A DNA stretch of 64,000 nucleotides from an uncultured beta proteobacterium (GTDB lineage: Bacteria > Pseudomonadota > Gammaproteobacteria > Burkholderiales > SG8-39): contig CAIOLO010000019.1 in assembly GCA_903859155.1 (NCBI GenBank), forward strand, positions 74,472 to 138,471, read 5' to 3'. Under the pieces are notes generated by a model, which was not told the DNA's origin, did not search any database, and worked only from the letters and a program-made list of their open reading frames with translations. Shown here piece by piece: positions 11,045-25,839 of the stretch. The position numbers were made by a program, and so were the translations under genes. Position 1 is the first letter of the stretch; every line of letters begins with the position of its first letter.

Positions 11045-11908
11045 CTATGCCGCCTTCGCAGCTTTGGGTTCGAGCGCGATGGCACCCAGATGGCAGCTTT
11101 TTTTCAAAGCGAACTCCAGCGTTTTGCTGCTGAAACGCGGATCGCTCACCTCGATGCGGTAGCTGGCGCCGTCTGCATCCAGCCGGCGGAAACGGAAATC
11201 CCCGTAGGTGTCGCTCACCGTTTCGGCCAGCTTCTGCGTACCCTTCCACAGAACGATGTGAGCATCCGCGATGCATTCGATTGCCCCGTTGAGCATTCCT
11301 TCCAGTGTACCGCCGACGAAGGACTTGAAATAGCTGTCGAGGTTCTTGTAATACACGCGCGGCTTGTTGCCGAATTCGGGGTGAAGCACCTCGAGCTTCT
11401 CGTCGCGCACCATGCGCTGCATTTCCTCGTCTTCCAGATGCAATGTCTGGAAGGCATTGGTCGGACACACCTGCGAGGCGCGCGTCTGCGTCCACCCCTT
11501 GTCGAGCAGGTGCGCGTCGAACGGCCAGGTCTGCGGCAGCTGTTTTTCTTCGTTCCACCAGATCATGCCGTAGGGGCAGGACTTGACCAGTTCCGGGTGC
11601 CCCTTGGAGCGCACCGGGTCGAAAATCACGATGCCGTCGGCGCGCTTGCTGATCGCGCCCTCGGGTGCGCCCTTCATGCAGCTGGGTTCGTCGCAGTGGT
11701 TGCAGGTTACCGGCAGATAGGCCACCTCCACCATGGGATATTCGCCCTGTTCGCGCTGCCGGATCTCGATCCAGCGATGTCCCTGACGCGGCATCTCTTC
11801 GGCATAGCCGGGGAATGAATTGCCGCAGTACTCGTCGTGTACGGCGAGCGCGCAGTTGTTGCAGTTAAAGCACTTCGCTACGTCGATGAGCAGGTTCCAC
11901 TTTTTCAT
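11045..11908 (-). CDS. Pyrogallol hydroxytransferase/resorcinol hydroxylase-like small (beta, Fe-S) subunit, paralog 1
   Basis: True start is '[19 protein letters not shown]' at 11908, overlapping the alpha stop (ATGA). It has 'CNHCDEPSC', 'SCPYG' and a C-terminal carboxypeptidase-regulatory-like beta-sandwich ('YGDFRFRRL'). Only 8 canonical cluster cysteines are present. Confidence 0.8.
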
Positions 11909-14900
11909 GACGGCATCGCCTCCTTGGCTGCGGCTGCATTGGCCGCCACTTTTTCGCTGGTACCAGCGCGCGCGCCCAGGGCCGTCGAGCCGTCCCAGAG
12001 TTCCACCTCCACCAGGCAGGAATTGGGCGCCATCCCCAGCACCTTGCTGGCGATGGAGCGCTTGGGCGTGAGATTGTTGATGCAACCGCCGCGGTCGACC
12101 GAATTCCCCGGTTCGCCCAGAGGGTCGTACACCGCCGAGGAAGAGTAGGAGTGCGCCGTCCCTTGCCCCAGCCGGCTGGTTACATGCGCAGCGCACAGGA
12201 CCGCGCCGCGATCATTGTGCACTTTGACCAGGTCGTGGTGTTTGATGCCGCGCGCCCGGGCGTCCTGGGCGTTGATCCGCACCACCCAGTAGTAGTAGCC
12301 CTTCACCAGTACGCGGTGTTCGGCGATGTCGTTGGTCGAGCATTGCTTGCCGTCGGCGAAGGTGTGAAAACTGAAGCGCGAGTGCGGCGAGAGCAGTTGC
12401 AGCGGAAAACGCCCGAACAGCTCCTTGGTCTGCGGGCCTTCCCAGGACTGCAGGTATCTTACGATCGGCGGGCGCTCCGGATCGTTTGCATCGAAATGCT
12501 TGAGACTGGAGCACTCGAACTCGAACTTGCCGCTCTGGGTCTGCAGCCCCATCAGGAACTGCTTGCGGTAGTCGCCCGGCAGGGGAGAGGGCTCGGGCAC
12601 GTCCTTCTTGCGGCCCTCGTAGAACCAGCGCATCGCCACCGGGTCGCGCTTGCCCTCTTCGAGCGGCGGCACGACGTAATAGCCCTTTTTCAGGAACTCC
12701 TTCCACGAGATGACTTTGGGCAGATCGGAGGCGTCGAACACGCGCTTCACCCAGTCGAGCTCGTTCATGCCTTCGCAGAAATAAGTGCCCAGGCCCAGCC
12801 GGCTGCAGATCTCGGTGAAAATCCGGATGTCGGACTTCGATTCGCCCAGCGGCTCTATGCATTTGTGCTGCAGCATGATGACGCGGTGGTTCATCTGCGT
12901 CTGATAGTGCATCCCATAGCCGCCCGCGTGGGCCAGATCGCTGATGTCCCAGCGCTCGAACTGGGTGCAGGCGGGCAGCAGAACGTCGGCGAACTTCGCT
13001 TCGCCTTCGAACCAGATTGATTGATTTACGACGAACTCGAGCTTGTCGGTACGGTACATGTTCACGTAGCGGTTGGTCTCGGTCATGGTGCCGATGGACG
13101 CACCGCCGTACTTGTAGAGCATCTTGATGGGCGAATGGCCGGGCGCCGGATAGGAAAACTTCATGAACTGGCCTTCGATGGTGAAGCCGTTCCATGGATA
13201 GCCCTCGGCCTTGCCATCCATGATGGCCTCCGGAATGCGCAGGCGCGGCACTTTCTGCATCGAAGGGCCGTAGCTGGGCAGCTGCGGCATGCGCTGATAG
13301 AGGCTGACCGGGATGCCCGTGTTCTGGATGTCGCCCGACATACCGCCCTCGGCGTAGCCGGGGAAATAGAAGCGGATGTCGATAGGCCCGCCGTACTGCA
13401 GGTTGCCGTAGTTCACGCCGGGCTTGCCCATGCCCTGCATGCCCATGAGGCAGGCCAGCGCGCGAGCAAACTGGATGCCGTTGGCGGCGCGGCAGGCGCC
13501 GCCGTGCCCGTTGCCCGGGCCTCCGGCCGCGAGGTAGGTCTTTGTCTTGCCCCACTTGCGCGCAAGGGCTCGCACTTCCTTCGCCGGGACCCCCGTTTCC
13601 GCCTGTTGCCATTCAGGGGTTTTCGGCACACCGTCTTCCTTGCCCAGGACGTAGTCGCTCCAGACATCGAAGCCCACGCAGCGGTCGGCGACGAATTTCT
13701 TGTCGTACAGCCCCTCGGTCATCCAGACGTGCGCGATTGCCAGGGCGAGCGCGGTGTCGGTGCCGGGTTTGGGCGCCATCCATTTCCCGCCCAGCAGCGC
13801 CGCCGTGTGGTTGAAGTAGGGATCGATGTGCACCAGCTCGATGCCCAGGTCCTTGAGCCACTGCCTGCGGATGGTGGCCTCGAACCCGCCGTAAGCGCCA
13901 TTGGTGGCTTCCGGGTCGGACGACCAGAACACCATCATTTCGCATTCCTTCATGCAGTCTTCGATGGTGTTGTAGAACTCCACCTGCCCCAGGCGCATGC
14001 TGTAGCCGTAATGATGCGTGGCGCCCCAGTACCAGCCCTCCCAGCTGTCGGGGTTGTGCGCCACGCGCGAGGCGCCGATGGTGTTGAAGAACTTGTAGGC
14101 CGCGCTGATGTAGTAGCCGATGTTGCCCCACATGTGGTGCGAGCCGTGGTTGCCCAGGATGGCGCCCTGTCCATGCTCCGTCTTGACGCGGGTGATCTCG
14201 CCGGCGACGATGTCGAGGGCCTCTTCCCAGCTGATCCGCTCATACCCGGAGATGCCGCGATTCTGGGGGTTGCGTTCGCCTTTCGGATCGAAATCGACGC
14301 GTTTCATGGGGTAGAGCAGCCGGTCCGGCGAGTAGAGCGTCGATTTCACGCTGACGCCGTGGGGCGAAAGCGTGGTCTTGTGCGGAGGGGTGAAGCTCTT
14401 GCCGCGCGCCTTGATGGTCCACGCCGGGGCATCCTGGTCGGTGAATTCCATCGGTGTGGTGCGAATGACCTTGCCGTCCTTCACGTAGACGAACAAGGGG
14501 CCGCCATTGGTATTGGTGACATAGCGTTTGGTCCCGTCGCCCATGTCGATGCCGTACTCGACCTCCGGGTTCTGCATCAGCATCATGGTCTGGGTGAACC
14601 AGACGATCAGTTCGTCCGAGCCGTCGGCGCCGAACTGATAGTTCTTCATCGCCTCGATGCGCTCCAGTTGGTCCACCCAGGGCACGAACAGCCGCGCGCC
14701 GATCTTCGCCGAGGCGACGCTGATGGTGATGTCCGGTTTCGGGTGGAGGCCGCTCTCTGAGCTGACCCGCCCGTCATTGAAGGTGTAGTACCGGGCTATC
14801 GACTTATCCGCCGTCGCGATCTGGCAGGTGAAGTTCTTTTCCTTGAGCCTTTTTGCGAACTCGGGGAAGCGGCTCGCCTGGAAATTGAGCGCATGGGTCA

Positions 14901-14943
14901 TGCCGTACAGGATCACGGAAAACTTGGTGGCCGCGAGACTCAT
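11905..14943 (-). CDS. Pyrogallol hydroxytransferase/resorcinol hydroxylase-like large (alpha, Mo-bis-MGD) subunit, paralog 1, with an SCP2-like N-terminal extension
   Basis: ORF 11905..14958. ATG 14943 has the RBS AAGAGG. The core is colinear with paralogs 2 and 3 ('[34 protein letters not shown]', '[16 protein letters not shown]', 'VFWSSDPE'). The extra ~140 aa at the N-terminus is absent from paralog 3. Confidence 0.8.
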
Positions 14944-14994
14944 GGTCGCCTCTTTCATCTGGGTTGAGCATAGGTGAGGAACTGATGCGCGCGA

Positions 14995-15105: not shown

Positions 15106-15873
15106 TTGAGCCGTTCGAAAATGCTCTCGATTCTGGATCTGTTTGACAAGGCTTCGCCGGCCTGGTCAGCGGATGCCATTTGTGCGCGCCTGGGCTGCTC
15201 AACCTCGAGCGGCTATCGCTACATCCGCGAGTTGTGCGCGGTTGGACTGCTGACCCGCATCTCGGGTGGGACCTATGTGCTGGGGCCGAGAATCGTGCAG
15301 CTGGAACTGGTCATGAGGGAAATCGATCCGGTGTCAAAAACCGGCCTGCCGCTCATCGCCGACCTGGTGCGCCAGACCGGCTGCGACGTGTTGCTGGCCA
15401 ATATGTACGGCGACCATATCGTCAATGTGCTGCACGAACGCGGCGCAGAACAGCTGCCCCTCAGCTATGAGCGCGGCCGCCCGCACCCCTTGTTTCGCGG
15501 CGCCATGTCGAAAGCCATCCTTGCGTTTCTGCCGCGCGCGCGCGCGCTGCGCCTGTACAACGCGCATGCGGCCCTGGCCGCAGAGAGCGGCATGGGCCAC
15601 AGCTGGCGCGAGTTCTGGCAGGCGCTGCAGCAGATCCGTAAGAAAGGCTTCAGCGAGAGCGACGGCGAGCTCGATGCGGGCGTGATCGGCATAGGCGCCC
15701 CGGTGCTCAACGGTGACGAAATCATGGGCAGCATCTCGATCGGCTGCTCGCGCGCCCGGCTGGCCTTGCTGAACAAGGCGAATCTGACCGAGTTGCTGCT
15801 GTCAACCGCAAGGCAGATCAGCCAGGAGGTGGAACGGATTTCGCATGCGGAGCCCACGCCAGGCGCGGTGTAG
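15106..15873 (+). CDS. IclR-family transcriptional regulator
   Basis: 255 aa (TTG 15106, or ATG 15121). N-terminal wHTH 'LSILDLF......SADAICARLGCSTSSGYRYIRELCAVGLL' and a C-terminal IclR effector domain ('GVIGIGAPV...GSISI'). Confidence 0.85.
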   Translation: MSRSKMLSILDLFDKASPAWSADAICARLGCSTSSGYRYIRELCAVGLLTRISGGTYVLGPRIVQLELVMREIDPVSKTGLPLIADLVRQTGCDVLLANMYGDHIVNVLHERGAEQLPLSYERGRPHPLFRGAMSKAILAFLPRARALRLYNAHAALAAESGMGHSWREFWQALQQIRKKGFSESDGELDAGVIGIGAPVLNGDEIMGSISIGCSRARLALLNKANLTELLLSTARQISQEVERISHAEPTPGAV

Positions 15874-16046: not shown

Positions 16047-17003
16047 TCAGTCTGGCTGTATGCCCGCTTCCTTGATCGACTGCGCCCAAACCTTGCGCTG
16101 CGCCGTGAGGAAGGCAGCGAATGCCTCTGGCGTTGAACCTTCGGCATGGAAGCCGGTGCGATCGGAACCTTCGCGCACCTCCGCGCGCTTCAGGATGACA
16201 TTGAGCTCGCGTGCCAGCCGGTCAATGATGGGCTTGGGCAATTGCGCCGGTCCGAACAAGCCCACAAACGAGGTGATCGAAGCAGGCGGTATCCCGGCTT
16301 CTGCCGCGGTGGGAATATCCGGGGCGAGTGAACTGCGCTGGTCGAGCATCACGGCAAGTCCTCTGAGTTTGCCTTCCTTGACCAGCGGAAGCGCGGCGCC
16401 GCTGGAAAAATTGGCATGCACGCGACCGGTCATGAGTTCGGTGAAGGTCTGCACTTCGCTCTTGAAGGGTATCTGCACCATGTTGATGCCCGCCCCCTTG
16501 TTCAGTGCCTCGGCCAGAACGATGCCGCTGATATTGGCGCCTGCATAGTTGATCTTGCCGGCGTTGGTGCGCGCATAGGCGACGAAATCAGCGGCTGTCT
16601 TGACCGGCAGGTCCGGCGCGACCACCAGGAACACCGGGAATTTGGCCAGCAGCATGATCGAGGTGAGATCTTTCGATGGCTCGTAGGGCGGATTCTTGCG
16701 CAGCAGCGGCGCCGAGAGCACGGCGGTCGGTGTAGACAGGAACAGGGTGAGGCCGTCGGGCGGGGATTTGATCACCACGTCGGCGCCGATTGCCCCGTCG
16801 GCCCCCGGGCGATTGTCGATGATCACCGGCTGGCCCAGTTCCCTGGCCAGCGGCGGCGCGATCACGCGCGCGAAGTTGTCGCTGGAGGAGCCGCCCGGGA
16901 ACGGAATCACCATGCGGATGGGCTTGCTCGGATACTGCGCGGCTGCGCCGGCTGATAGCGCAGCCGCGCATATGACGAGGACGGATCGGGTTATTGCAAG
17001 CAT
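16047..17003 (-). CDS. Bug/TctC-family substrate-binding protein (copy 2)
   Basis: 318 aa. Signal peptide followed by 'QYPSKPIRMVIPFPGGSSSD'. Confidence 0.85.
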   Translation of the reverse strand: MLAITRSVLVICAAALSAGAAAQYPSKPIRMVIPFPGGSSSDNFARVIAPPLARELGQPVIIDNRPGADGAIGADVVIKSPPDGLTLFLSTPTAVLSAPLLRKNPPYEPSKDLTSIMLLAKFPVFLVVAPDLPVKTAADFVAYARTNAGKINYAGANISGIVLAEALNKGAGINMVQIPFKSEVQTFTELMTGRVHANFSSGAALPLVKEGKLRGLAVMLDQRSSLAPDIPTAAEAGIPPASITSFVGLFGPAQLPKPIIDRLARELNVILKRAEVREGSDRTGFHAEGSTPEAFAAFLTAQRKVWAQSIKEAGIQPD

Positions 17004-17231: not shown

Positions 17232-17765
17232 TCACGCGGCCAGCACCGACTTCAGGATAGCCTCGAACGCGTCGTCGGCGAGCTTGCGCAGTTCCGCGTC
17301 GGTGCGGTCCTGGATCGGGGGCGGGATGAACACCACCGCCGGCTCGAAGGCGAGCGTTTTGCACTGTGCCACGGCACCGTCTCGGAATAGTTCCGTCACC
17401 ACGCCCACGCTCACCACGCCGCGCGCCTCCAGGTCTGTGATGTCGTGCATACAGCACGACGTGCAGGACCCTCAATCGGCCAGGCCTTCGACAACGATAT
17501 CGCACTCCGCGGCGATGGTCTGCTTCAGCTCGGTCGGGGCTTCCCAGGAGAAATGCGGCTTGGCGTAGCGCTTCACCTTGACGCCGCGCTCTGTGAATAA
17601 TTCGTCCAGCCGGTCGAGGAATATCTCCCCCGGATCTTTTCTGATGTCCATGATGCCCACCGTGAGCCCTTCGAGTGATTGCGGCCGCTGCAGACGGTCG
17701 CGGAATTCGCGGTGCAGTTCGCTCGTCGGGTCGACCAGTACCAGATCCTGAAGTTCTTCGTTCAT
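17232..17765 (-). CDS. UGSC-motif selenoprotein (Sec encoded by in-frame TGA at 17472-17474); function unknown
   Basis: ORFs 17472..17819 and 17232..17450 are in the same frame. Read-through gives '...IVVEGLAD-U-GSCTSCCMHD...'. A SECIS-like hairpin begins just downstream. ATG 17765 has the RBS GGAAGGA. Confidence 0.7.
17432..17470 (-). other. Bacterial SECIS-like stem-loop
   Basis: Upper stem GUCGUGC/GCACGAC (17460-17454 / 17448-17442) with loop UGUAU. Lower stem GGUC(C)UG/CAGACC. The upper stem starts exactly 11 nt after the UGA. Confidence 0.65.
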
Positions 17766-17797
17766 GCGGTGATTTCCTTCCACTTGATAGCCGAAAA

Positions 17798-19255
17798 CTA
17801 TGGTTTTATTTCTGCCCAATCCATGCCGATGTCCAGGCTCAACCCGGCGATGACAGCCGCCATCATTCCCGCCTCGCCGCCCGCGGCCACGATGTTCAGT
17901 CCATCGGGCAGGAACTTCGGGATGGTGAGCGTGGGGTCGTCGAGCCGCGCGCGCTGCTCGGGCGTGATGCGGCGCAGCCCCTCGTCGTCGTCGTTGTAAC
18001 CGGGCATCAGCTCGCGCACCGGAATCTGCAGCCGCTCGAGAATCGCCGCCTTGAGCCGCTGCTTCGACCAGCCCGCCTCGCGAAAGTGGACGGTGTGCTC
18101 AGGCGCGATCAGCAGCAGCGCGGTGGAGTAGGTGATCTTCGGGTGGTGCACTACCCGCAGGCACTGCGCGTAGGTCGCCACCAGGCCTTCGGGTGTGCGC
18201 GAGCGGTGATCGTGCAGGCCCTGCACGCCATTGCCGGTGAAGATGTGCACCACGTTCTGATCGGGTCGGAAGCCGCGCTCGACCGCGAGCGATTCCCACG
18301 GGCTGCCCAGTTCATCCTCGGCGAAGCACATGGTGTACTTGCCCTGGTGCCCGATGGTGCAGCGGTCGATGCCCCCGGGGCCCGGCCGGCCGCCGCCGAC
18401 GTTGCGGATGATCAGTTGCAGCGCGCGCCCGATGGATGCATTCGCCCGGTTGGCCTGGCCCAGCACATTGCGTCCGGAGTTCATGCCGATCGCCCGGCTG
18501 ATCGGGCCGCTCACCACGATCATCGGCGTCGCGAAGGAAGTCGTGCACAGCACCCCATGCATGCCGAATTTCGGACCGCAGGCCGTCTCGATAGCCGCCA
18601 GCACCACCGGAAAGTATTCGGGTTTGCAGCCGGCCATGACGGCATTGACCGCCGCTTTTTCCACCGTGCATGCGGCGCGGTCCGGCGGAACGATGGCAAT
18701 CACTTCGTCGGGCCTGCGGCGCGTGCCCTTCAACATGCGCAGCACCCGCGCCTCCGTCGGCGGGGTGACCGGCAGGCCATCGGTCCAGCCGCGATCGAAC
18801 ATCGCCTCCATGGGATCGACGTGGGCCGGCACGTGCACGCGGCGCGAGACGATGCCGGTGTCGCCAAAGCGCGCGGCCAGTTCCTCGGCCATGCCCGGCT
18901 CGATGTTGATCGCGCCGCAGCCCGGGCGGTTCTCCGGGAGCTTGTCGCCCAGGCCTTTGACGCCGGTGATCGCCTGCCATTCGCCACGGTTCCAGCCGAT
19001 CACACGTTCGACCTCGCGGCCCTGCTCGAAGCGGATCAGCGTGGGGACGATCTCGATTTTCTGCCGGTAGGAAAACGCAAGCCCGCGGTCGTCGATGACT
19101 CCGGGCACGCCTTCGGGAAAGGCGGGATCGTCCTGGGTGTACACCGACAGCGGCCCACCCTTATCCGTCAACTCGCGCAATATCGGTTGCACCAGTTCGC
19201 AGGTGGGGCAGTCGCGCTTGACGACGGCGACCAGTCCATTGACGATTTCATTCAT
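17798..19255 (-). CDS. Thioredoxin-fold (CPTC) domain fused to a ~380-aa domain of unknown function
   Basis: The ORF extends to 19876, but the true start 'MNEIVNGLVAVVKRDCPTCELVQPIL' at 19255 overlaps the stop of the upstream FAD gene (ATGA). I do not recognise the C-terminal part. Confidence 0.6.
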   Translation of the reverse strand: MNEIVNGLVAVVKRDCPTCELVQPILRELTDKGGPLSVYTQDDPAFPEGVPGVIDDRGLAFSYRQKIEIVPTLIRFEQGREVERVIGWNRGEWQAITGVKGLGDKLPENRPGCGAINIEPGMAEELAARFGDTGIVSRRVHVPAHVDPMEAMFDRGWTDGLPVTPPTEARVLRMLKGTRRRPDEVIAIVPPDRAACTVEKAAVNAVMAGCKPEYFPVVLAAIETACGPKFGMHGVLCTTSFATPMIVVSGPISRAIGMNSGRNVLGQANRANASIGRALQLIIRNVGGGRPGPGGIDRCTIGHQGKYTMCFAEDELGSPWESLAVERGFRPDQNVVHIFTGNGVQGLHDHRSRTPEGLVATYAQCLRVVHHPKITYSTALLLIAPEHTVHFREAGWSKQRLKAAILERLQIPVRELMPGYNDDDEGLRRITPEQRARLDDPTLTIPKFLPDGLNIVAAGGEAGMMAAVIAGLSLDIGMDWAEIKP

Positions 19256-20619
19256 GCGGGGTCCTTGACAAGTTCTTCTCTGCCCAGATAGGCGCCATCG
19301 GTTTCCAGTTGCCGCTGCAGCTTGTTCACCTCGATCCGGCGGGGCTGGACGCCCGACTGCAACGCAAGGTGTGCGGCGGTACCCGCGGCCTGTCCCATGA
19401 CGAAGCAGGGGCCCGAGACCCGCGCCGAAGCCTGGCCGTCGTGCGTCATCGAGGCGCAGCGGCCGGCGACAAACAGGTTGTCCACATTCCTGGGTACGAT
19501 CATCCGGTAGGGCAGATGGTTGAAGCCGCGTGATTCGGGGATCTTCGGGAACTTGATGACGACGGTGTCCGCCACATGCGCCTCCACCGGCCAGCCGTTG
19601 ACACCGATGCTGTCCTCGAAGCTGGCGCACTCGAGGATGTCCCGCTCCGAGAGCATGTAATCGCCGACCACGCGCCGCGTTTCGCGGATGCCCAGTTGCG
19701 GAGCGATCTCGACGATGTAGGAATTCTCGAATCCGGGGGCCATGCGGCGTACGAACTCGAACACCTCCATGCACTGGCGGCGCCCCTCGACCTCGCCGTA
19801 ACTCAATTGCTCCGCGTCGATGCCGCTGACAGCCGAACCGTCGGGGTTCTTGATAAGCGTGGCATTGGCGCTCCACTCCATGGGATTCATCTGCGGCCTG
19901 AAGATTGCGCCGCGGCGCGGGAAGCGGCGTCCCTGCCGTTCGGCCTCCTCCATCAGCCTGGGGATCTCCTCCCGGGCATTGCGGGCCCTGACCGGATCGA
20001 CGTTGTTGATGCGGATTTTTGCCGATGGATAGTAGCCGCTGCCGGCGCCATCGCCGACTTCAAAGGGCGCCCCGGCCCACGCGGCGAGATCGCCGTCGCC
20101 CGAGCAGTCGATGAACATCCGCCCGCGGATGGCGCCACGCCCGGATTTGCTCTCGACCAGCAGCGCATCGATGCTGCGATCGGCACCCATGCACACGCCC
20201 ACGCCGAAAGCGTGAAACAGCACCTTGACGCGCGTGGCCGCCATCAACTGGTCGGCTACGACCTTGTAGGCCGAGATGTCATACAGCTGCGCATTGATCT
20301 TGCCGCCCAGTGACAGGTGCGGGGGATTGAGGCCACCGAGGCGATCGAGCCGCGCGAGGATTTCGTCGGCCAGGCCGTGCACGACCTGTTTGATTTCTCC
20401 GTGAACATTGGCATGCAGTCCGCAGAAATTGGAAATGCTTGCCGCCGTGCCGCCGCCGCCCAGAAATCCGTAACGCTCGACCAGCACGGTGGAACGTCCG
20501 CTTTTGCCGGCGGCCGCGGCGGCCGCAATCCCGGCCGGCCCGCCGCCGAGGACTACAACGTCGAATTCCCCCAATACCGGTGTCTGCCGGCCGGGCTCCG
20601 CAATCGTGCTGTTGACCAT
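19252..20619 (-). CDS. FAD-dependent oxidoreductase (GIDA/FAD_oxidored-like)
   Basis: Start 'MVNSTIAE' at 20619 with a GGAGG RBS. Dinucleotide motif 'DVVVLGGGPAGIAAAAAA' and 'ERYGFLGG'. Confidence 0.7.
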   Translation of the reverse strand: MVNSTIAEPGRQTPVLGEFDVVVLGGGPAGIAAAAAAGKSGRSTVLVERYGFLGGGGTAASISNFCGLHANVHGEIKQVVHGLADEILARLDRLGGLNPPHLSLGGKINAQLYDISAYKVVADQLMAATRVKVLFHAFGVGVCMGADRSIDALLVESKSGRGAIRGRMFIDCSGDGDLAAWAGAPFEVGDGAGSGYYPSAKIRINNVDPVRARNAREEIPRLMEEAERQGRRFPRRGAIFRPQMNPMEWSANATLIKNPDGSAVSGIDAEQLSYGEVEGRRQCMEVFEFVRRMAPGFENSYIVEIAPQLGIRETRRVVGDYMLSERDILECASFEDSIGVNGWPVEAHVADTVVIKFPKIPESRGFNHLPYRMIVPRNVDNLFVAGRCASMTHDGQASARVSGPCFVMGQAAGTAAHLALQSGVQPRRIEVNKLQRQLETDGAYLGREELVKDPA

Positions 20620-20660
20620 GTTGATGCCTCCGAGTGGCTTGTCTTCAGGGGGAGGTGCGC

Positions 20661-21629
20661 CTAGTCGGCCGTGATTCCCGCGGCTTTCACGACCTTTGCC
20701 CATTTTTCGAGTTCTGTGCGGATGAAGGCATCGAATTGCTCCGGCGAATTGCCGACCGACTCCAGGCCCAGCTCGGCCATGCGTGATTTGACTTCAGGCG
20801 CCTGCACCGTGGCGACGAACGCCGCATTGATCCGGTTGACGATGGCGCGAGGCGTCGCACTGGGCACCACTGTGCCGTTGATGCTGAGCACGCTGAATCC
20901 GGGCAGGAGTTCGCCGACCGTCGGAATGTTCGGCGCAATCGCGGCGCGCTGCGGACTGGCTGTCGCAATGGCCTTGAGCTTGCCCGACTTGATATAGGCC
21001 ATGGCCGAGTGCAGCGGGTCTATCATGATTTGAACGCGCCCGGCCATGACGTCGGGGTATGCCGGTCCGCTTCCCTTGTAGGGGATGTGGACCATGTCGA
21101 TGCCGGTGTTGATCTTCAGCAACTCCCCGGTGAGGTGCATGGAACTGCCGGCCCCGGCTGTCGCGTAGCTCAATTTGCCCGGCATCTTTTTCGCCAGGGC
21201 GATCAGCTCGGCAAGCGTGTTTGCCTCCAGCGCGTGGTTCGCAGTGATCACCACGTGCGAAATCGTATTCATGGTGACGCCCGACAGATCCTTGACCGTG
21301 TCGAAAGGCATGTCCGGGCGCACGCTCGGGTTGATGACATGGGGCATCGCCACCTGACCAATGGTGTAACCGTCGGGTGCGGACTTGGCGACATAATTGG
21401 TGCCCACGACCATGCCGGCACCGGGCTTGTATTCGAGGACGACCGGTTGTCCCCAGATCTCCTGCAGCTTTTGCGCGAGCAGGCGCGCCATCACGTCGGA
21501 CCCGCCGCCGGGCGCATTGGCCACCACGAGAGTGACCCGTTTGTTGGGAAAATCCTGCGCGTGCCCGAGAGGCACGAGCACCGTGCCAAGTATCAGTGCA
21601 GCGCAGATTGCTTTGCCGGGACAGGTCAT
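20661..21629 (-). CDS. Bug/TctC-family substrate-binding protein (copy 3)
   Basis: 322 aa. Signal peptide followed by 'DFPNKRVTLVVANAPGGGSD'. Confidence 0.85.
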   Translation of the reverse strand: MTCPGKAICAALILGTVLVPLGHAQDFPNKRVTLVVANAPGGGSDVMARLLAQKLQEIWGQPVVLEYKPGAGMVVGTNYVAKSAPDGYTIGQVAMPHVINPSVRPDMPFDTVKDLSGVTMNTISHVVITANHALEANTLAELIALAKKMPGKLSYATAGAGSSMHLTGELLKINTGIDMVHIPYKGSGPAYPDVMAGRVQIMIDPLHSAMAYIKSGKLKAIATASPQRAAIAPNIPTVGELLPGFSVLSINGTVVPSATPRAIVNRINAAFVATVQAPEVKSRMAELGLESVGNSPEQFDAFIRTELEKWAKVVKAAGITAD

Positions 21630-21753
21630 AATAGTCTCCTCGCGGTGCGGCCGATTCCGTCACCAGGGGGCGGAAGGCAGGTTGCAGTCTGCCACACCTG
21701 GCGACATGGCGTAGTTCAATGCCGGCGCGGCGAATAACCATTCTGGAGTGAAG

Positions 21754-22716
21754 ATGAATTTCAAACTATCGTTGCTATCGACAGCTATCGTAACGGCCAG
21801 CCTGCTGGCAGGCGGCGCGCTCGCGCAGGGCGTGTATCCCTCCAAGCCGGTGCGCTGGATCGTTCCTTTTCCGCCCGGCGGTCCGACCGACGTGGTGGCG
21901 CGCGTGGTGGGCCCCAAGCTCGGCGAGCGGCTGGGCCAGCCTGTCATCATCGAGAACCGCGCCGGCGCCGGTGGCAATGTCGGCAATGATGCGGTGGCGA
22001 AATCCGCCCCCGACGGCTACAACATCGCCTTCGTCATTCCGGGGCTGATCACCAATCCGTTCTTCATGAAGTCGAGCATGGATCCGGCCGAGTTGATCTC
22101 GATTACGCAATTGACGCGTGTGTCCCTGGTGATGCTGGCCAATCCGGGCGTGCCGGCAAACTCCACGCGCGAAGTGGTCGATCTGATCAGGGCGAAGCCG
22201 GGCACGGTGAGCTGCGGGTCATCGGGATCCTTGCCCACGGTGGGCTGCGCGCTGCTCCAGTCCTACGCGAAGAGCGACATGATCATGGTGAATTACAAGG
22301 GCAATGCGCCGGCCCTGACCGGCCTGATGGGCGGCGAGATCAACCTCCTGTTCGACGTGGTCAACACCGCGTTATCGCAAGTCAAGAGCGGGCGGGTGCG
22401 CGCCATCGCCTCGACCAATCCGAAGCGCGGCAGCCCGCCCTTTGCCGATCTTCCGGTGGTTGCCGAAACCATTCCCGGATTTGATCTGGTGAGCTGGCAG
22501 GCCGCCATGGTGGCCCGCGCCACGCCACGGCAGCTGGTACAGCGCCTCAATCGCGATTTTCTGGCGGTGCTCGACATGCCCGATGTGCGGCAGCGGATGA
22601 TCGATACCGGATTGGAGTCGGCAGGGAGCACTCCCGAGGCTTTCGACGAATTCCTGGCGCGCGAATACGCCAAGTACGGCCAGGTGCTCAAGGAAGCGGG
22701 CATCAAGCCCGAATGA
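21754..22716 (+). CDS. Bug/TctC-family substrate-binding protein (copy 4)
   Basis: ORF from GTG 21748; ATG 21754 is better spaced from the GGAG. 'VYPSKPVRWIVPFPPGGPTD'. Confidence 0.85.
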   Translation: MNFKLSLLSTAIVTASLLAGGALAQGVYPSKPVRWIVPFPPGGPTDVVARVVGPKLGERLGQPVIIENRAGAGGNVGNDAVAKSAPDGYNIAFVIPGLITNPFFMKSSMDPAELISITQLTRVSLVMLANPGVPANSTREVVDLIRAKPGTVSCGSSGSLPTVGCALLQSYAKSDMIMVNYKGNAPALTGLMGGEINLLFDVVNTALSQVKSGRVRAIASTNPKRGSPPFADLPVVAETIPGFDLVSWQAAMVARATPRQLVQRLNRDFLAVLDMPDVRQRMIDTGLESAGSTPEAFDEFLAREYAKYGQVLKEAGIKPE

Positions 22717-22746
22717 ACGAGCGGCGAATGTTCCGGAGGACGTGGA

Positions 22747-24285
22747 ATGAGTGACAGAAGTGGTGCGCCCGATTGCGAGCGGTTTCGCCTGAGGCGCTTT
22801 CTCGAACTGCTCGGCCCTGAGGAGTTGGAGCGGCGCGATGCGCCGGTCGAGCTTGCCGATGTTGCCGCGGCGCTGGAGGGCAATCCCAGGGCCGTTCTGT
22901 TTGCGAGCGCCGGGCCCGAAGGCGCACAGCTTTGCGCCAACGTGCTGGCAAGCCGCAGTCGCATGGCACGCGCCTTCGGCACCACGCGCGAGGGCCTGCT
23001 GCCCGAATTGCTGCGGCGGCTTAAGACGCCTCCCCGGATTGAGGAGGTTTCGCGCGATGCCGCGCCGGTGCAAAGCGTGGTGCTCGAGGGCGACGCTGCC
23101 GATCTGACGGCGCTGCCGGCGCATCTGCAGCACCGGCTCGACGGCGCGCCCTATATTTCGGCATCAGTGGATTACAGCATTGATCCGTCCACCGGCTGGA
23201 CCAATGTGGGCATACGGCGCCTGATGCTGCGCGGGCGCCGCAAGGCGGGCGTGGACTGCACCGTGCCCTCGGACCTGCGCGCCATCATGGAGGCGCACAC
23301 CCGGCGCGGCGAGCCGGTACCGATCGCCTTTGTCATCGGCTCGTATCCGACCGACTACGTCGCCGCCACCATGCGCATTCCCGTCGATGAACTGGGCCTG
23401 GTGGCCTCGCTGCGGGGGGCGCCTTTGCCGGTGGTCAAGTGCATCACCAGCGAAATCCGCGTGCCCGCGGATGCGGAGATGGTGCTCGAGGGTTTTATCG
23501 ACACCGTATCGCCGGTGGAACCCGAAGGGCCCTATGGTGAATTCCTCGGCTATTACGGCGAGGTGAAGCGCAACCCGTTTTTCCGCCTGACCGCGATCAC
23601 CCGCCGCAGGGACGCGCTGTTCCAGACGGCGACCATCAGCGGGCGCACGCTCGCGTGCACCGACACCGCGCAGCTGAATGCGCTGCGCGTCGAGGCCGTG
23701 GCCTGGTCGGCTCTCGAGACCGCGGTGCGCGGGGTCAAAGCCGTATATGCCACTGCGGCCAGCGGTGGCTCGTTTCACCTTCGCATCGCCATGACCCAGC
23801 ACGTGCCCGGCGAGGCGCGCAACGCCATCGCCGCAGTGATGGGCTGTCTTGCCAACGTCAAGCACGTGTTCGTCGTCGATCCGGACATCGACATCTATTC
23901 GGACCAGCAGGTCGAGTGGGCGATGGCCACGCGCTTCCAGGCCGACCGCGACCTGATGGTGCAAGCGGGCATGCGTTCGATGCCGCTGGACCCCTCGGTG
24001 GCCGGAGGACGTTCCTGGGCGAAGGCAGGTTTCGATCTGACGCTTCCGTTCATGCCGCTGGGGCAGGCGCGGCCGATCGCGTTGCGGGTTCCCGAACCGC
24101 CGCGTTACGAGGGTGCCCGCCATGCGTCGCTTGCCGCGGCGCTGGCCGAGGGACCCAAGTACTTCGAAGAACTGATGGCGGCCACCGGCAGCCGTGACGG
24201 CCGCGAAATCGTTCTCGCCCTGGAAATTCTGGAGGAGGGCGGCAGCGTGACGCGCGACGCCGAAGGCCGGTATTTCCGCCAATGA
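22747..24285 (+). CDS. Divergent UbiD-family decarboxylase-like protein, copy 3, with a C-terminal extension
   Basis: 512 aa. 'EGPYGEFLGYYG' is retained, but the 'G.YR' motif reads 'NVGIRR'. About 60 extra C-terminal residues. Confidence 0.7.
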   Translation: MSDRSGAPDCERFRLRRFLELLGPEELERRDAPVELADVAAALEGNPRAVLFASAGPEGAQLCANVLASRSRMARAFGTTREGLLPELLRRLKTPPRIEEVSRDAAPVQSVVLEGDAADLTALPAHLQHRLDGAPYISASVDYSIDPSTGWTNVGIRRLMLRGRRKAGVDCTVPSDLRAIMEAHTRRGEPVPIAFVIGSYPTDYVAATMRIPVDELGLVASLRGAPLPVVKCITSEIRVPADAEMVLEGFIDTVSPVEPEGPYGEFLGYYGEVKRNPFFRLTAITRRRDALFQTATISGRTLACTDTAQLNALRVEAVAWSALETAVRGVKAVYATAASGGSFHLRIAMTQHVPGEARNAIAAVMGCLANVKHVFVVDPDIDIYSDQQVEWAMATRFQADRDLMVQAGMRSMPLDPSVAGGRSWAKAGFDLTLPFMPLGQARPIALRVPEPPRYEGARHASLAAALAEGPKYFEELMAATGSRDGREIVLALEILEEGGSVTRDAEGRYFRQ

Positions 24286-25839
24286 CGAGCTACATCGGAC
24301 GATCGATTCCGCGCGTCGAGGACCTGCGCTTTATCACCGGGCGCGGCTGCTACAGCGACGATGTGTTCCTCGAGGGCCAGGCGTACTGCGCTTTCGTGCG
24401 TTCGCCGCACGCGCACGCGCGCATCGCGGGGATCGAGATCGCGGCGGCGGCGGAATCCCCCGGCGTATTCGCGGTGCTCACCGGCGCGGACTCCACCGCG
24501 GACGGACTGCTCGGCATGGCGCACCTGCCCAATCCCGCTGACGCCCTCGATGTGTCGCTGCGTGCCTTCACCGCATCGCCAACTGTCAGATCGAGCCGCG
24601 CGCGGCTGTCGGCGATTAGGACAAGGCAAGCGGACTGCACACGCTGATCTCGGGCAGGCCAGGGCGCTTTTTTGCACAAGATGACGCTCGCACGCGTTTT
24701 CAGTGTCGAGATGGAAAAAGTGCGCGTGATCTGCCCCGATGTCGGCGGCGGTTTCGGGCCGCGCACCAACATGTATCCGGAGCAGGTGGTGGTGCTGTGG
24801 GCGGCCAAGAGGCTCGGCAGGCCGGTCAAATGGACCGGCGATCGCAGCGAAGCGTTCGTCTCGGACTATCAGGGACGCGACGGTGCGATGCGCACCGCGT
24901 TTGCGCTCGATAGCGAGGGCCGCATCCTTGCCTACGACATGCAATGGTTGGGCAATGTCGGCGCGCACACGGTGTCGTTTGTGACCATGTCCAACGGGCG
25001 TCGCATGCTGCCCACGGTGTATCACGTCCCGATGGCGCATTTCCAGGTGCAGGCGGTGTTCACCAACAGCGTGCCGACCGCACCGTACCGCGGCGCGGGC
25101 AGGCCCGAGGCCACGCACATGATCGAGCGCCTGCTCGACATGGCGGCTGCGCGCCTCAATATCGACAGGGTGGATATCCGCAGGCGCAATCTGGTGGGAT
25201 TGGACAGGCTGCCGTATCGCTCGGTGTCAGGGCTCTTGTACGACAGCGGTGATTTCGCCGGCTACGTGGAGAGCGCGCCTTGCGGGCACGCTGCTGGTGC
25301 AGGGATGCGGCGAAGTGATCGAGCAGGGTCGTGCGGCCGCGGGCGCACTGCTGGAGGTGGCCTCGGGCGATATCGTCTATGCAGAGGGTGTCTACCGCGT
25401 CAACGGCACCGATCGTTCTCTCGGGCTTTTCGAGGTGGCGCGCGCGCTGCAGGCGGGCAAACCCGGCGCAGGCTCTCGCCAGTCGCTCGCCGCCACCTGC
25501 GATTTCAAAGGCCGCACGCCCGCCTATCCGGCGGGCTGCGCGGTCTGCGAACTTGAAATCGATGCGCAGACCGGCCAGGTGCTCTCGGGTTCCTTCCTCG
25601 ATTACGGCATCAGCCGTGCCGACGACCTGCCTTCTTTGCGCGTCGAACACGCCGAACATCCCACCGCGGGCAATCCGCTGCGGATCAAGGGAGGCGGCGA
25701 AGGCGGCATCGTTCCCGCAACCGCAGCGGTGCTCAACGCCCTGTGCGACGCGCTAGTGCGGGCGCGGGTGAACGATCTTCCGATGCCCGCGACTGCGGCG
25801 GCGGTGTGGCAGAAGACGCGTGGGATCGACACTCCCTAG
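24282..25839 (+). pseudogene. Decayed xanthine dehydrogenase/CO dehydrogenase-family molybdopterin (CoxL-like) large subunit
   Basis: Three fragments lie in different frames: 24282..24647, 24672..25556 and 25249..25839. They carry the N-terminal ('IGRSIPRVEDLRFITGRG'), middle ('VGGGFGPR','APYRGAGRPEA') and C-terminal ('IKGGGEGGIVPATAAVLNAL') family motifs. About 520 codons remain where about 770 are expected. Confidence 0.8.

Follow-up and report, generated by a model that had tools for sequence, protein, structure and literature searches.

Our analysis points toward a two-protein selenoenzyme in an uncultured beta proteobacterium of the order Burkholderiales (SG8-39; GenBank assembly GCA_903859155.1). 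Its two genes lie on the minus strand of a 64,000-nucleotide stretch of contig CAIOLO010000019.1 (positions 74,472 to 138,471 of the forward strand), called the window here at its full length, and coordinates refer to the window unless another location is named. One gene (17232-17765) encodes a selenoprotein of the UGSC family, and the other (17798-19255) encodes a protein of 485 amino acids (aa) that begins ...VKRDCPTCE... and in which an N-terminal thioredoxin (Trx)-fold domain is fused to a domain of no Pfam family, termed here the partner domain. We lean toward the view that these two proteins are the functional unit and would work together as a thioredoxin-fed selenol/thiol reductase on small organic acids, both substrate and chemistry being what we infer from the genes and their neighbors.

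The first component is the UGSC protein of 177 aa. It belongs to PF24696 (E 4.4e-33; 115.2 bits against a cut-off of 25), and it scored 122.2 bits against NF041046, just under the cut-off of 125, when Cys replaced selenocysteine (Sec). Its gene has an in-frame TGA at 17472-17474 (minus strand), and if this codon is read as Sec, the protein carries the redox motif U98-G-S-C101-T-S-C104-C105; the PF24696 model runs across the TGA as a single domain. U and C101 are invariant in an alignment of 13 diverse family members. The TGA is found at the identical position in all 11 UGSC paralogs of the host genome and in 76 of 78 orthologous UGSC genes, and the remaining two orthologs have Cys instead. Eleven nucleotides (nt) past the UGA begins a selenocysteine insertion sequence (SECIS), a hairpin of 7 bp (GUCGUGC-UGUAU-GCACGAC; 17442-17460, minus strand). 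Only 1 of 500 shuffled sequences (0.2%) folds equally well. Furthermore, the hairpin is 96.9% paired over 74 distinct orthologous sequences from many phyla, with compensatory changes at three of the seven pairs, and none of 500 shuffles matches this conservation. A G-C pair of the stem is frequently G-U among the orthologs, and the synonymous sites flanking the hairpin vary freely. Ten of the 11 host paralogs keep a hairpin in this register but differ in stem sequence, and several have the classical GGUC loop. RNAalifold found no consensus when the SECIS regions of the 11 paralogs were aligned without gaps, because loop lengths differ between the paralogs, and the hairpin was therefore judged from per-sequence folds and the ortholog alignment. 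An Rfam search of the window gave no match. The host genome encodes the machinery for Sec, namely tRNA-Sec (60 bits), selB (364 bits), selD (428 bits), and SelA (E 2e-161). Because of the in-frame TGA, the conserved SECIS hairpin, and the presence of selA, selB, selD, and tRNA-Sec, the UGSC gene is, on comparative grounds, a true selenoprotein gene whose UGA is translated as Sec; this agrees with the initial annotation, which had been made from the letters of the window and their open reading frames (ORFs).

The host genome (~5.26 Mb, 61% G+C), whose protein cluster contains an entry from a groundwater Betaproteobacteria metagenome-assembled genome, has 11 UGSC genes, all with a single in-frame TGA, and the C-terminal part of the 485-aa protein (~340 residues) is likewise represented by 11 paralogs. 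Every one of the UGSC genes adjoins a partner-domain paralog or is fused to one, the fusion being in frame in 8 of the 11 cases. A Trx-fused partner gene followed by a separate UGSC gene is seen only in the window and on contig C34. Indeed, the distance matrix of UGSC parallels that of the partner domain (Mantel r 0.885, p 2e-4), and most paralog pairs are only 20 to 35% identical. Because of the mirrored matrices and the low identities, UGSC and partner domain have evidently been inherited, duplicated, and often fused as a unit, and the duplications are evidently old.

The same pairing is found in other genomes. A scan with one genome per species gave 595 relatives of the Trx-fused partner protein, and the best 80 of these 595 (the 80 loci) come from at least eight phyla (Alpha-, Beta-, Gamma-, and Deltaproteobacteria, Myxococcota, Chloroflexota, Actinomycetota, Acidobacteriota, Spirochaetes, and candidate phyla). 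Directly after the Trx-fused partner gene, on the same strand, 78 of the 80 loci have a UGSC gene, with a median of 33 nt between the matched regions. The initial annotation had grouped the CxxC thioredoxin module with the Sec/Cys protein, and this part of it is borne out here as well as by the 11 host copies. The two exceptions (L089 and L091), Trx-fused partner genes without an adjacent UGSC gene, are from sponge-associated Acidimicrobiia (Candidatus Poriferisodalis). Both of these genes have a Gly-rich insertion close to the C terminus. The Trx-type subfamily maintains 50 to 60% identity between phyla. In relatives of the same family or order, the copy numbers of UGSC and partner agree (34/35, 19/20, 7/7, and 2/2). 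The related Burkholderiales genomes G013 and G030 have 34 and 19 UGSC genes, almost every one of which contains an in-frame TGA. In G030, 18 of the 20 partner genes, two of them with a Trx domain, are directly adjacent to UGSC in either order. Judged by gene order, the conserved unit is two genes, the Trx-fused partner and UGSC, and not four. At 6 of the 80 loci, selA adjoins the pair. In the host genome, one UGSC-partner fusion gene (C9, 76204-77907) is followed by a Bug gene, selA (73757-75223), a gene for a thiamine pyrophosphate enzyme, and the tRNA-Sec gene (71133-71221). Because selA adjoins the pair at these loci and at this module, UGSC may be a main user of Sec in these organisms.

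The second component, the 485-aa protein, consists of two domains. The N-terminal one (18956-19255, minus strand) has CPTC at residues 16 to 19 and the cis-Pro motif VPT. Its AlphaFold2 (AF2) model has a predicted local distance difference test score (pLDDT) of ~90, and Foldseek matched it to thioredoxins at a target-normalized template modeling (TM) score of 0.6 to 0.65 and a probability of 1.0; thioredoxins were also found at E 5e-5 in a profile search of Protein Data Bank (PDB) sequences. Against the TIGR01068 equivalog it reached 16 bits, the cut-off being 96.8; apart from this weak thioredoxin signal, neither Pfam nor NCBIfam has a family for the 485-aa protein. By its motifs and its modeled structure, the N-terminal stretch of ~100 residues is a Trx-fold domain and no canonical thioredoxin. 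Trx-type partners have a conserved extra Cys in the linker L-P-x-x-R-P-G-C-G-S/A between the two domains (18900-18960 in the window, residues ~100 to 118), and in the UGSC subfamily that goes with them, a third Cys is conserved (U-G-S-C-T-S-C). These two Cys could be additional residues of the relay or form a metal site.

The partner domain (17801-18835, minus strand; ~340 to 345 aa) had no match in Pfam even at E 10. Its profile found no relative among PDB sequences, and the UGSC profile likewise found only thioredoxins or noise. The AF2 prediction is confident, with a pLDDT of 85 and a predicted TM score of 0.78 for the full-length protein and 0.87 for the partner domain alone. The partner domain was folded alone because a Foldseek search of the PDB with the full-length model gave thioredoxin matches only, all from the N-terminal domain. 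The best matches of the partner-only model were class I fumarate hydratase and cyanuric acid hydrolase (E 1e-3, probability 0.72) with a TM score of 0.24 to 0.27 and a root mean square deviation of 18 A. The modeled fold has, at such values, no convincing match among PDB structures, and the well-characterized unrelated enzyme that the initial annotation had reckoned with as a possible match did not turn up in the Foldseek search of the PDB. Kinship with class I fumarate hydratase was rejected, the TM score being at most 0.27, the hhalign probability against Escherichia coli FumA 0.1%, and an invariant Cys for a cluster being absent.

Conserved motifs of the partner domain are W-T-D-G-L-P-x-x-P-P-T, TVEK, AVMAGC-x-PEY, NGP, ANA-x-IGRA, and E-x-E. 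The invariant residues are polar (D159, T178, N259, R277, N285, E313, and E315, with T197 nearly invariant), and the alignment has no invariant Cys. A profile built from the 11 paralogs retrieved 7,724 cluster representatives at 50% identity, 2,422 of them at E ≤1e-30, and their lengths fit stand-alone (~350 aa), Trx- or UGSC-fused (~420 to 580 aa), and tandem (~710 to 740 aa) forms. Two tandem partner domains are seen in the metagenome representatives P0122, P0123, P0125 to P0127, and P0143 (710 to 740 aa). Because of these tandem proteins, the partner domain may function in a dimeric or pseudo-dimeric state.

In our model, the partner domain would bind the substrate and supply acid/base residues (the invariant Asp, Thr, Asn, Arg, and two Glu; no Cys), and the U-x-x-C of UGSC would attack or reduce the bound substrate and finish as a Se-S bond. 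Electrons would flow from NADPH (reduced nicotinamide adenine dinucleotide phosphate) via the cell's thioredoxin reductase to the fused Trx domain, which would re-reduce the Se-S bond of UGSC. In the paralogs without a Trx domain, the Se-S bond would be re-reduced by a dedicated flavoprotein resembling thioredoxin reductase (TrxR) or by a free thioredoxin. The obligate pairing, the invariant U-x-x-C, the Trx fold of the partner protein, and the TrxR-like flavoproteins with CxxC beside a few Trx-less modules support such a relay; catalysis itself we infer.

The genes beside the modules of the host genome vary from module to module. They encode a sulfatase, an arylsulfotransferase-like protein, a glucose-methanol-choline (GMC) oxidoreductase, a class II aldolase, a dihydroxy-acid dehydratase, a hydrolase, SelO, and cupin and flavin hydroxylases, and aromatic-ring enzymes are among the neighbors. 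Many substrates are likely, since the binding proteins and catabolic enzymes next to the old paralogs differ, and this points to a family of reductases, or of enzymes that cleave bonds reductively, with different small organic acids as substrates. A Bug gene, coding for a periplasmic solute-binding protein, lies within 150 nt at 6 of 10 host module loci, compared to 18% of random segments (binomial probability, ~0.004). Bug genes are thus enriched beside the host modules but do not belong to the core. The host genome has 373 Bug/TctC-like ORFs (E <1e-20), and such a number in 5.26 Mb is an extreme expansion of orphan binding proteins of the tripartite tricarboxylate transporter (TTT) type. The SelO protein adenylyltransferase gene (PF02696, E 7e-127; C116, 15104-16711) is located immediately downstream of a UGSC-partner fusion gene. 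In animals, SelO itself is a selenoprotein, and its adjacency to the fusion gene may be due to chance or to a redox link.

Several points weigh against a thioredoxin-fed reductase. In a clustering of the neighbors of the 80 loci, which includes spurious antisense ORFs and was used only for the absence of a widely recurring third gene, no gene besides the pair recurs in more than 12 loci, and therefore, the context gives no pathway. The adjacency of Bug genes is weak evidence because the genome has 373 of them. TrxR-like neighbors are rare: a 300-aa flavoprotein of this kind with a CxxC motif follows two of the nine Trx-less host modules (C108 and C10) and one module in G030, and none was found at the 80 Trx-type loci. 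Moreover, the catalytic role of the partner domain is a guess, as the modeled domain matches no known fold, and the U-x-x-C motif could equally serve nonreductive chemistry.

The last point leads to redox-neutral catalysis, an explanation that we consider unlikely. Here, Sec would be a nucleophile acting on a substrate in the partner domain, as in an isomerase, a lyase, a hydrolase, or a group-transferring enzyme, or the pair would handle sulfur or selenium, and the Trx domain would merely keep Sec and Cys reduced. Consistent with redox-neutral chemistry, the partner domain has neither a redox cofactor motif nor an invariant Cys, and its weak fold matches are to hydro-lyases and ring-opening hydrolases; the location of one module beside selA and tRNA-Sec and of selA beside 6 of the 80 pairs fits this explanation as well. 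However, fold matches with TM scores of at most 0.27 are unreliable, and an invariant Cys three residues past Sec is the hallmark of a Se-S redox couple. Furthermore, the fusion to a Trx domain and the dedicated TrxR-like neighbors of other modules point to stoichiometric electron input.

It is also imaginable, if rather improbable, that the pair serves stress defense or detoxification and not catabolism, be it as a peroxidase-like enzyme, as a reductase of electrophiles or metalloids, or in the repair of protein disulfides. An antioxidant role has been assumed for most Trx-like selenoproteins of aquatic bacteria (PMC2398784), the Trx-type pair often has only unrelated genes around it, and the identity of 50 to 60% between phyla in the Trx-type subfamily is in line with such a role. 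Yet, a genome with 11 to 34 old paralogs that have diverged to 20 to 35% identity, some of them beside Bug proteins and catabolic enzymes, speaks for many substrates, and a partner of 340 aa with an invariant polar pocket would be superfluous for the reduction of peroxides.

The initial annotation had combined four genes in one relay, and its description of the four minus-strand ORFs is confirmed, including the U-G-S-C-x2-C-C motif. The first gene of this co-directional run (20661-21629) codes for a Bug/TctC-family periplasmic solute-binding protein (PF03401, E 8.6e-71) with a signal peptide, seen as a hydrophobic leader (...LVPLGHAQ) at the N terminus, and the second (19252-20619) codes for a flavin adenine dinucleotide (FAD)-dependent oxidoreductase that matches PF12831 over its full length (E 9e-113). 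The stop codon of the FAD gene and the start codon of the Trx-fused partner gene share ATGA at 19252-19255, and a gap of 32 nt (17766-17797) separates the latter from the UGSC gene. In a four-gene relay, electrons would pass from NAD(P)H to the FAD flavoprotein, then to the CxxC Trx module, and finally to Sec, and the Bug protein would import the substrate. The tight co-directional packing with its ATGA overlap fits this idea, as does the lack of a terminator-like site on the minus strand, and other modules do have flavoprotein neighbors. We nevertheless regard it as very unlikely. The FAD protein is a PF12831 protein and not a pyridine-nucleotide disulfide reductase (Pyr_redox_2), and with 25 bits against TIGR01292 (cut-off, 343), it does not qualify as a low-Mr thioredoxin reductase; because its sequence has no CxxC motif, it is not a donor of the thioredoxin reductase type. 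A literature search on PF12831 yielded nothing of use.

Comparison of neighborhoods gives the same picture. An ortholog of the FAD oxidoreductase was found at 0 of the 80 loci and at 0 of the 20 G030 modules, nor is one located upstream of the Trx-fused partner orthologs with 80% and 83% identity, the former of which follows xanthine-dehydrogenase-type genes. In three genomes of the same genus, FAD orthologs (69 to 71% identity) are flanked by Bug genes, and neither a UGSC nor a partner gene is nearby. A Bug gene is present in just 4 of the 80 loci. The neighborhood whose conservation the initial annotation had put up for examination is thus conserved for the Trx-fused partner and UGSC but not for the FAD and Bug genes. 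By this distribution, the FAD oxidoreductase is a local addition outside the conserved module. In the two-protein model, the Bug protein of the window and the translationally coupled PF12831 flavoenzyme would probably be local helpers in the import and the pre- or postprocessing of the substrate, outside the electron relay.

That the TGA is a genuine stop codon and the two halves of UGSC are separate small ORFs or a pseudogene is hardly conceivable: gene callers do split UGSC at the TGA and the NF041046 score is 3 bits short of the cut-off, but a single Pfam domain across the TGA, its retention in 11 paralogs and 76 orthologs with Cys at this position in two others, the covariation in the conserved SECIS hairpin, and the full Sec machinery of the genome all argue against it.

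The vicinity of the module in the window holds further genes. A second Bug/TctC binding protein (16047-17003, minus strand; PF03401, E 1.5e-52) is encoded 228 nt downstream of UGSC, and a gene for an IclR-family protein (15106-15873, plus strand; IclR_C, E 4e-20, and HTH_IclR) may encode a local regulator. The second Trx-type module, on contig C34, has a paralogous IclR gene in its vicinity. The surroundings on either side (11905-14958, minus strand; 21748-25556, plus strand) include genes for a pyrogallol-hydroxytransferase-like molybdoenzyme and a divergent Bug protein, for a UbiD-family decarboxylase (22747-24285), and for pieces of a xanthine-dehydrogenase-family enzyme (24282-25556) that is apparently split over two ORFs. 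These surroundings suggest catabolism of aromatic or heterocyclic acids.

Taken more broadly, UGSC and its partner might be a very widespread class of Sec-dependent enzymes that has gone unrecognized, with a catalytic domain lacking a solved relative and with 11 to 34 substrate-specific paralogs per genome in some Burkholderiales. Some aerobic heterotrophs would then have selenoproteomes near the largest known and use them for the reductive transformation of imported organic acids. We put this forward tentatively, as a possibility to which we give less credence than to the two-protein enzyme itself. Through its obligate pairing with a domain of ~7,700 clusters, the "Trx-like selenoprotein" becomes a defined enzyme of two components that is open to expression, reconstitution, and screening, and the diverged copies beside different binding proteins and catabolic genes provide concrete guesses at substrates. 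Copy numbers of 11, 19, and 34 would alter the picture of selenoprotein-rich bacteria as mostly anaerobes. Indeed, the 34 UGSC genes of one relative approach the largest bacterial selenoproteome, 39 genes in Syntrophobacter, in a survey of 2016 that counted 33 UGSC genes in 26 organisms, or about 1.3 per genome (PMC5029168).

UGSC was reported in 2007 and 2008 as an abundant selenoprotein of unknown function (PMC1976440, PMC2398784), and a review of 2026 still lists it as uncharacterized (PMC13188914). Hyphomonas neptunium is among its reported carriers (PMC1976440). The initial annotation had stated that no function is known for the combination of genes in the window; this holds for UGSC (PMC2398784, PMC13188914), but the combination is not wholly new, as a UGSC/Unknown_1 fusion was mentioned in one sentence in 2008 (PMC2398784). 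This fusion is very probably the one seen in eight of the paralogs described here. The literature searched does not mention that the pairing is nearly obligate, that the partner has a Trx-fused form, how large the partner family is, or that there are genomes with 11 to 34 copies. The window protein shares the U-G-S-C motif, the length, and the use of Sec with the published UGSC family. In published work, UGSC is a stand-alone Trx-like protein, whereas here it is half of an obligate pair, with a Trx-fused form of the partner and 11 to 34 copies per genome.

The logic proposed for this pair is like that of the selenoprotein B reductases of the Stickland reaction, to which no homology was detected. 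GrdB (with GrdE) and PrdB (with PrdA) combine a U-x-x-C selenoprotein with a separate subunit that binds the substrate; a thiol resolves the selenoether or Se-S intermediate, and thioredoxin or dithiols supply the electrons. PF07355 (GRDB) had no match in the 13 UGSC members even at E 10, the Pfam matches of the UGSC and partner families at this E value being confined to UGSC and Trx-like models, and a search through 301 genomes of the phylum gave no GRDB gene. Unlike in GrdB-type reductases, no pyruvoyl-type proprotein is recognizable, and the partner matches no family. The hosts differ as well: those of UGSC belong largely to aerobic freshwater, soil, and marine lineages. Class I fumarate hydratase and the cyclic amide hydrolases of the Toblerone fold, the source of the weak fold matches, both act on small carboxylates or cyclic amides, but their kinship with the partner domain is not credible. 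With Trx-fusion enzymes such as Trx-fused methionine sulfoxide reductases and peroxiredoxins, the 485-aa protein shares a built-in reductant domain on a putative catalytic domain; here, however, the Trx domain is far under the equivalog cut-off and is fused to a domain of no known family.

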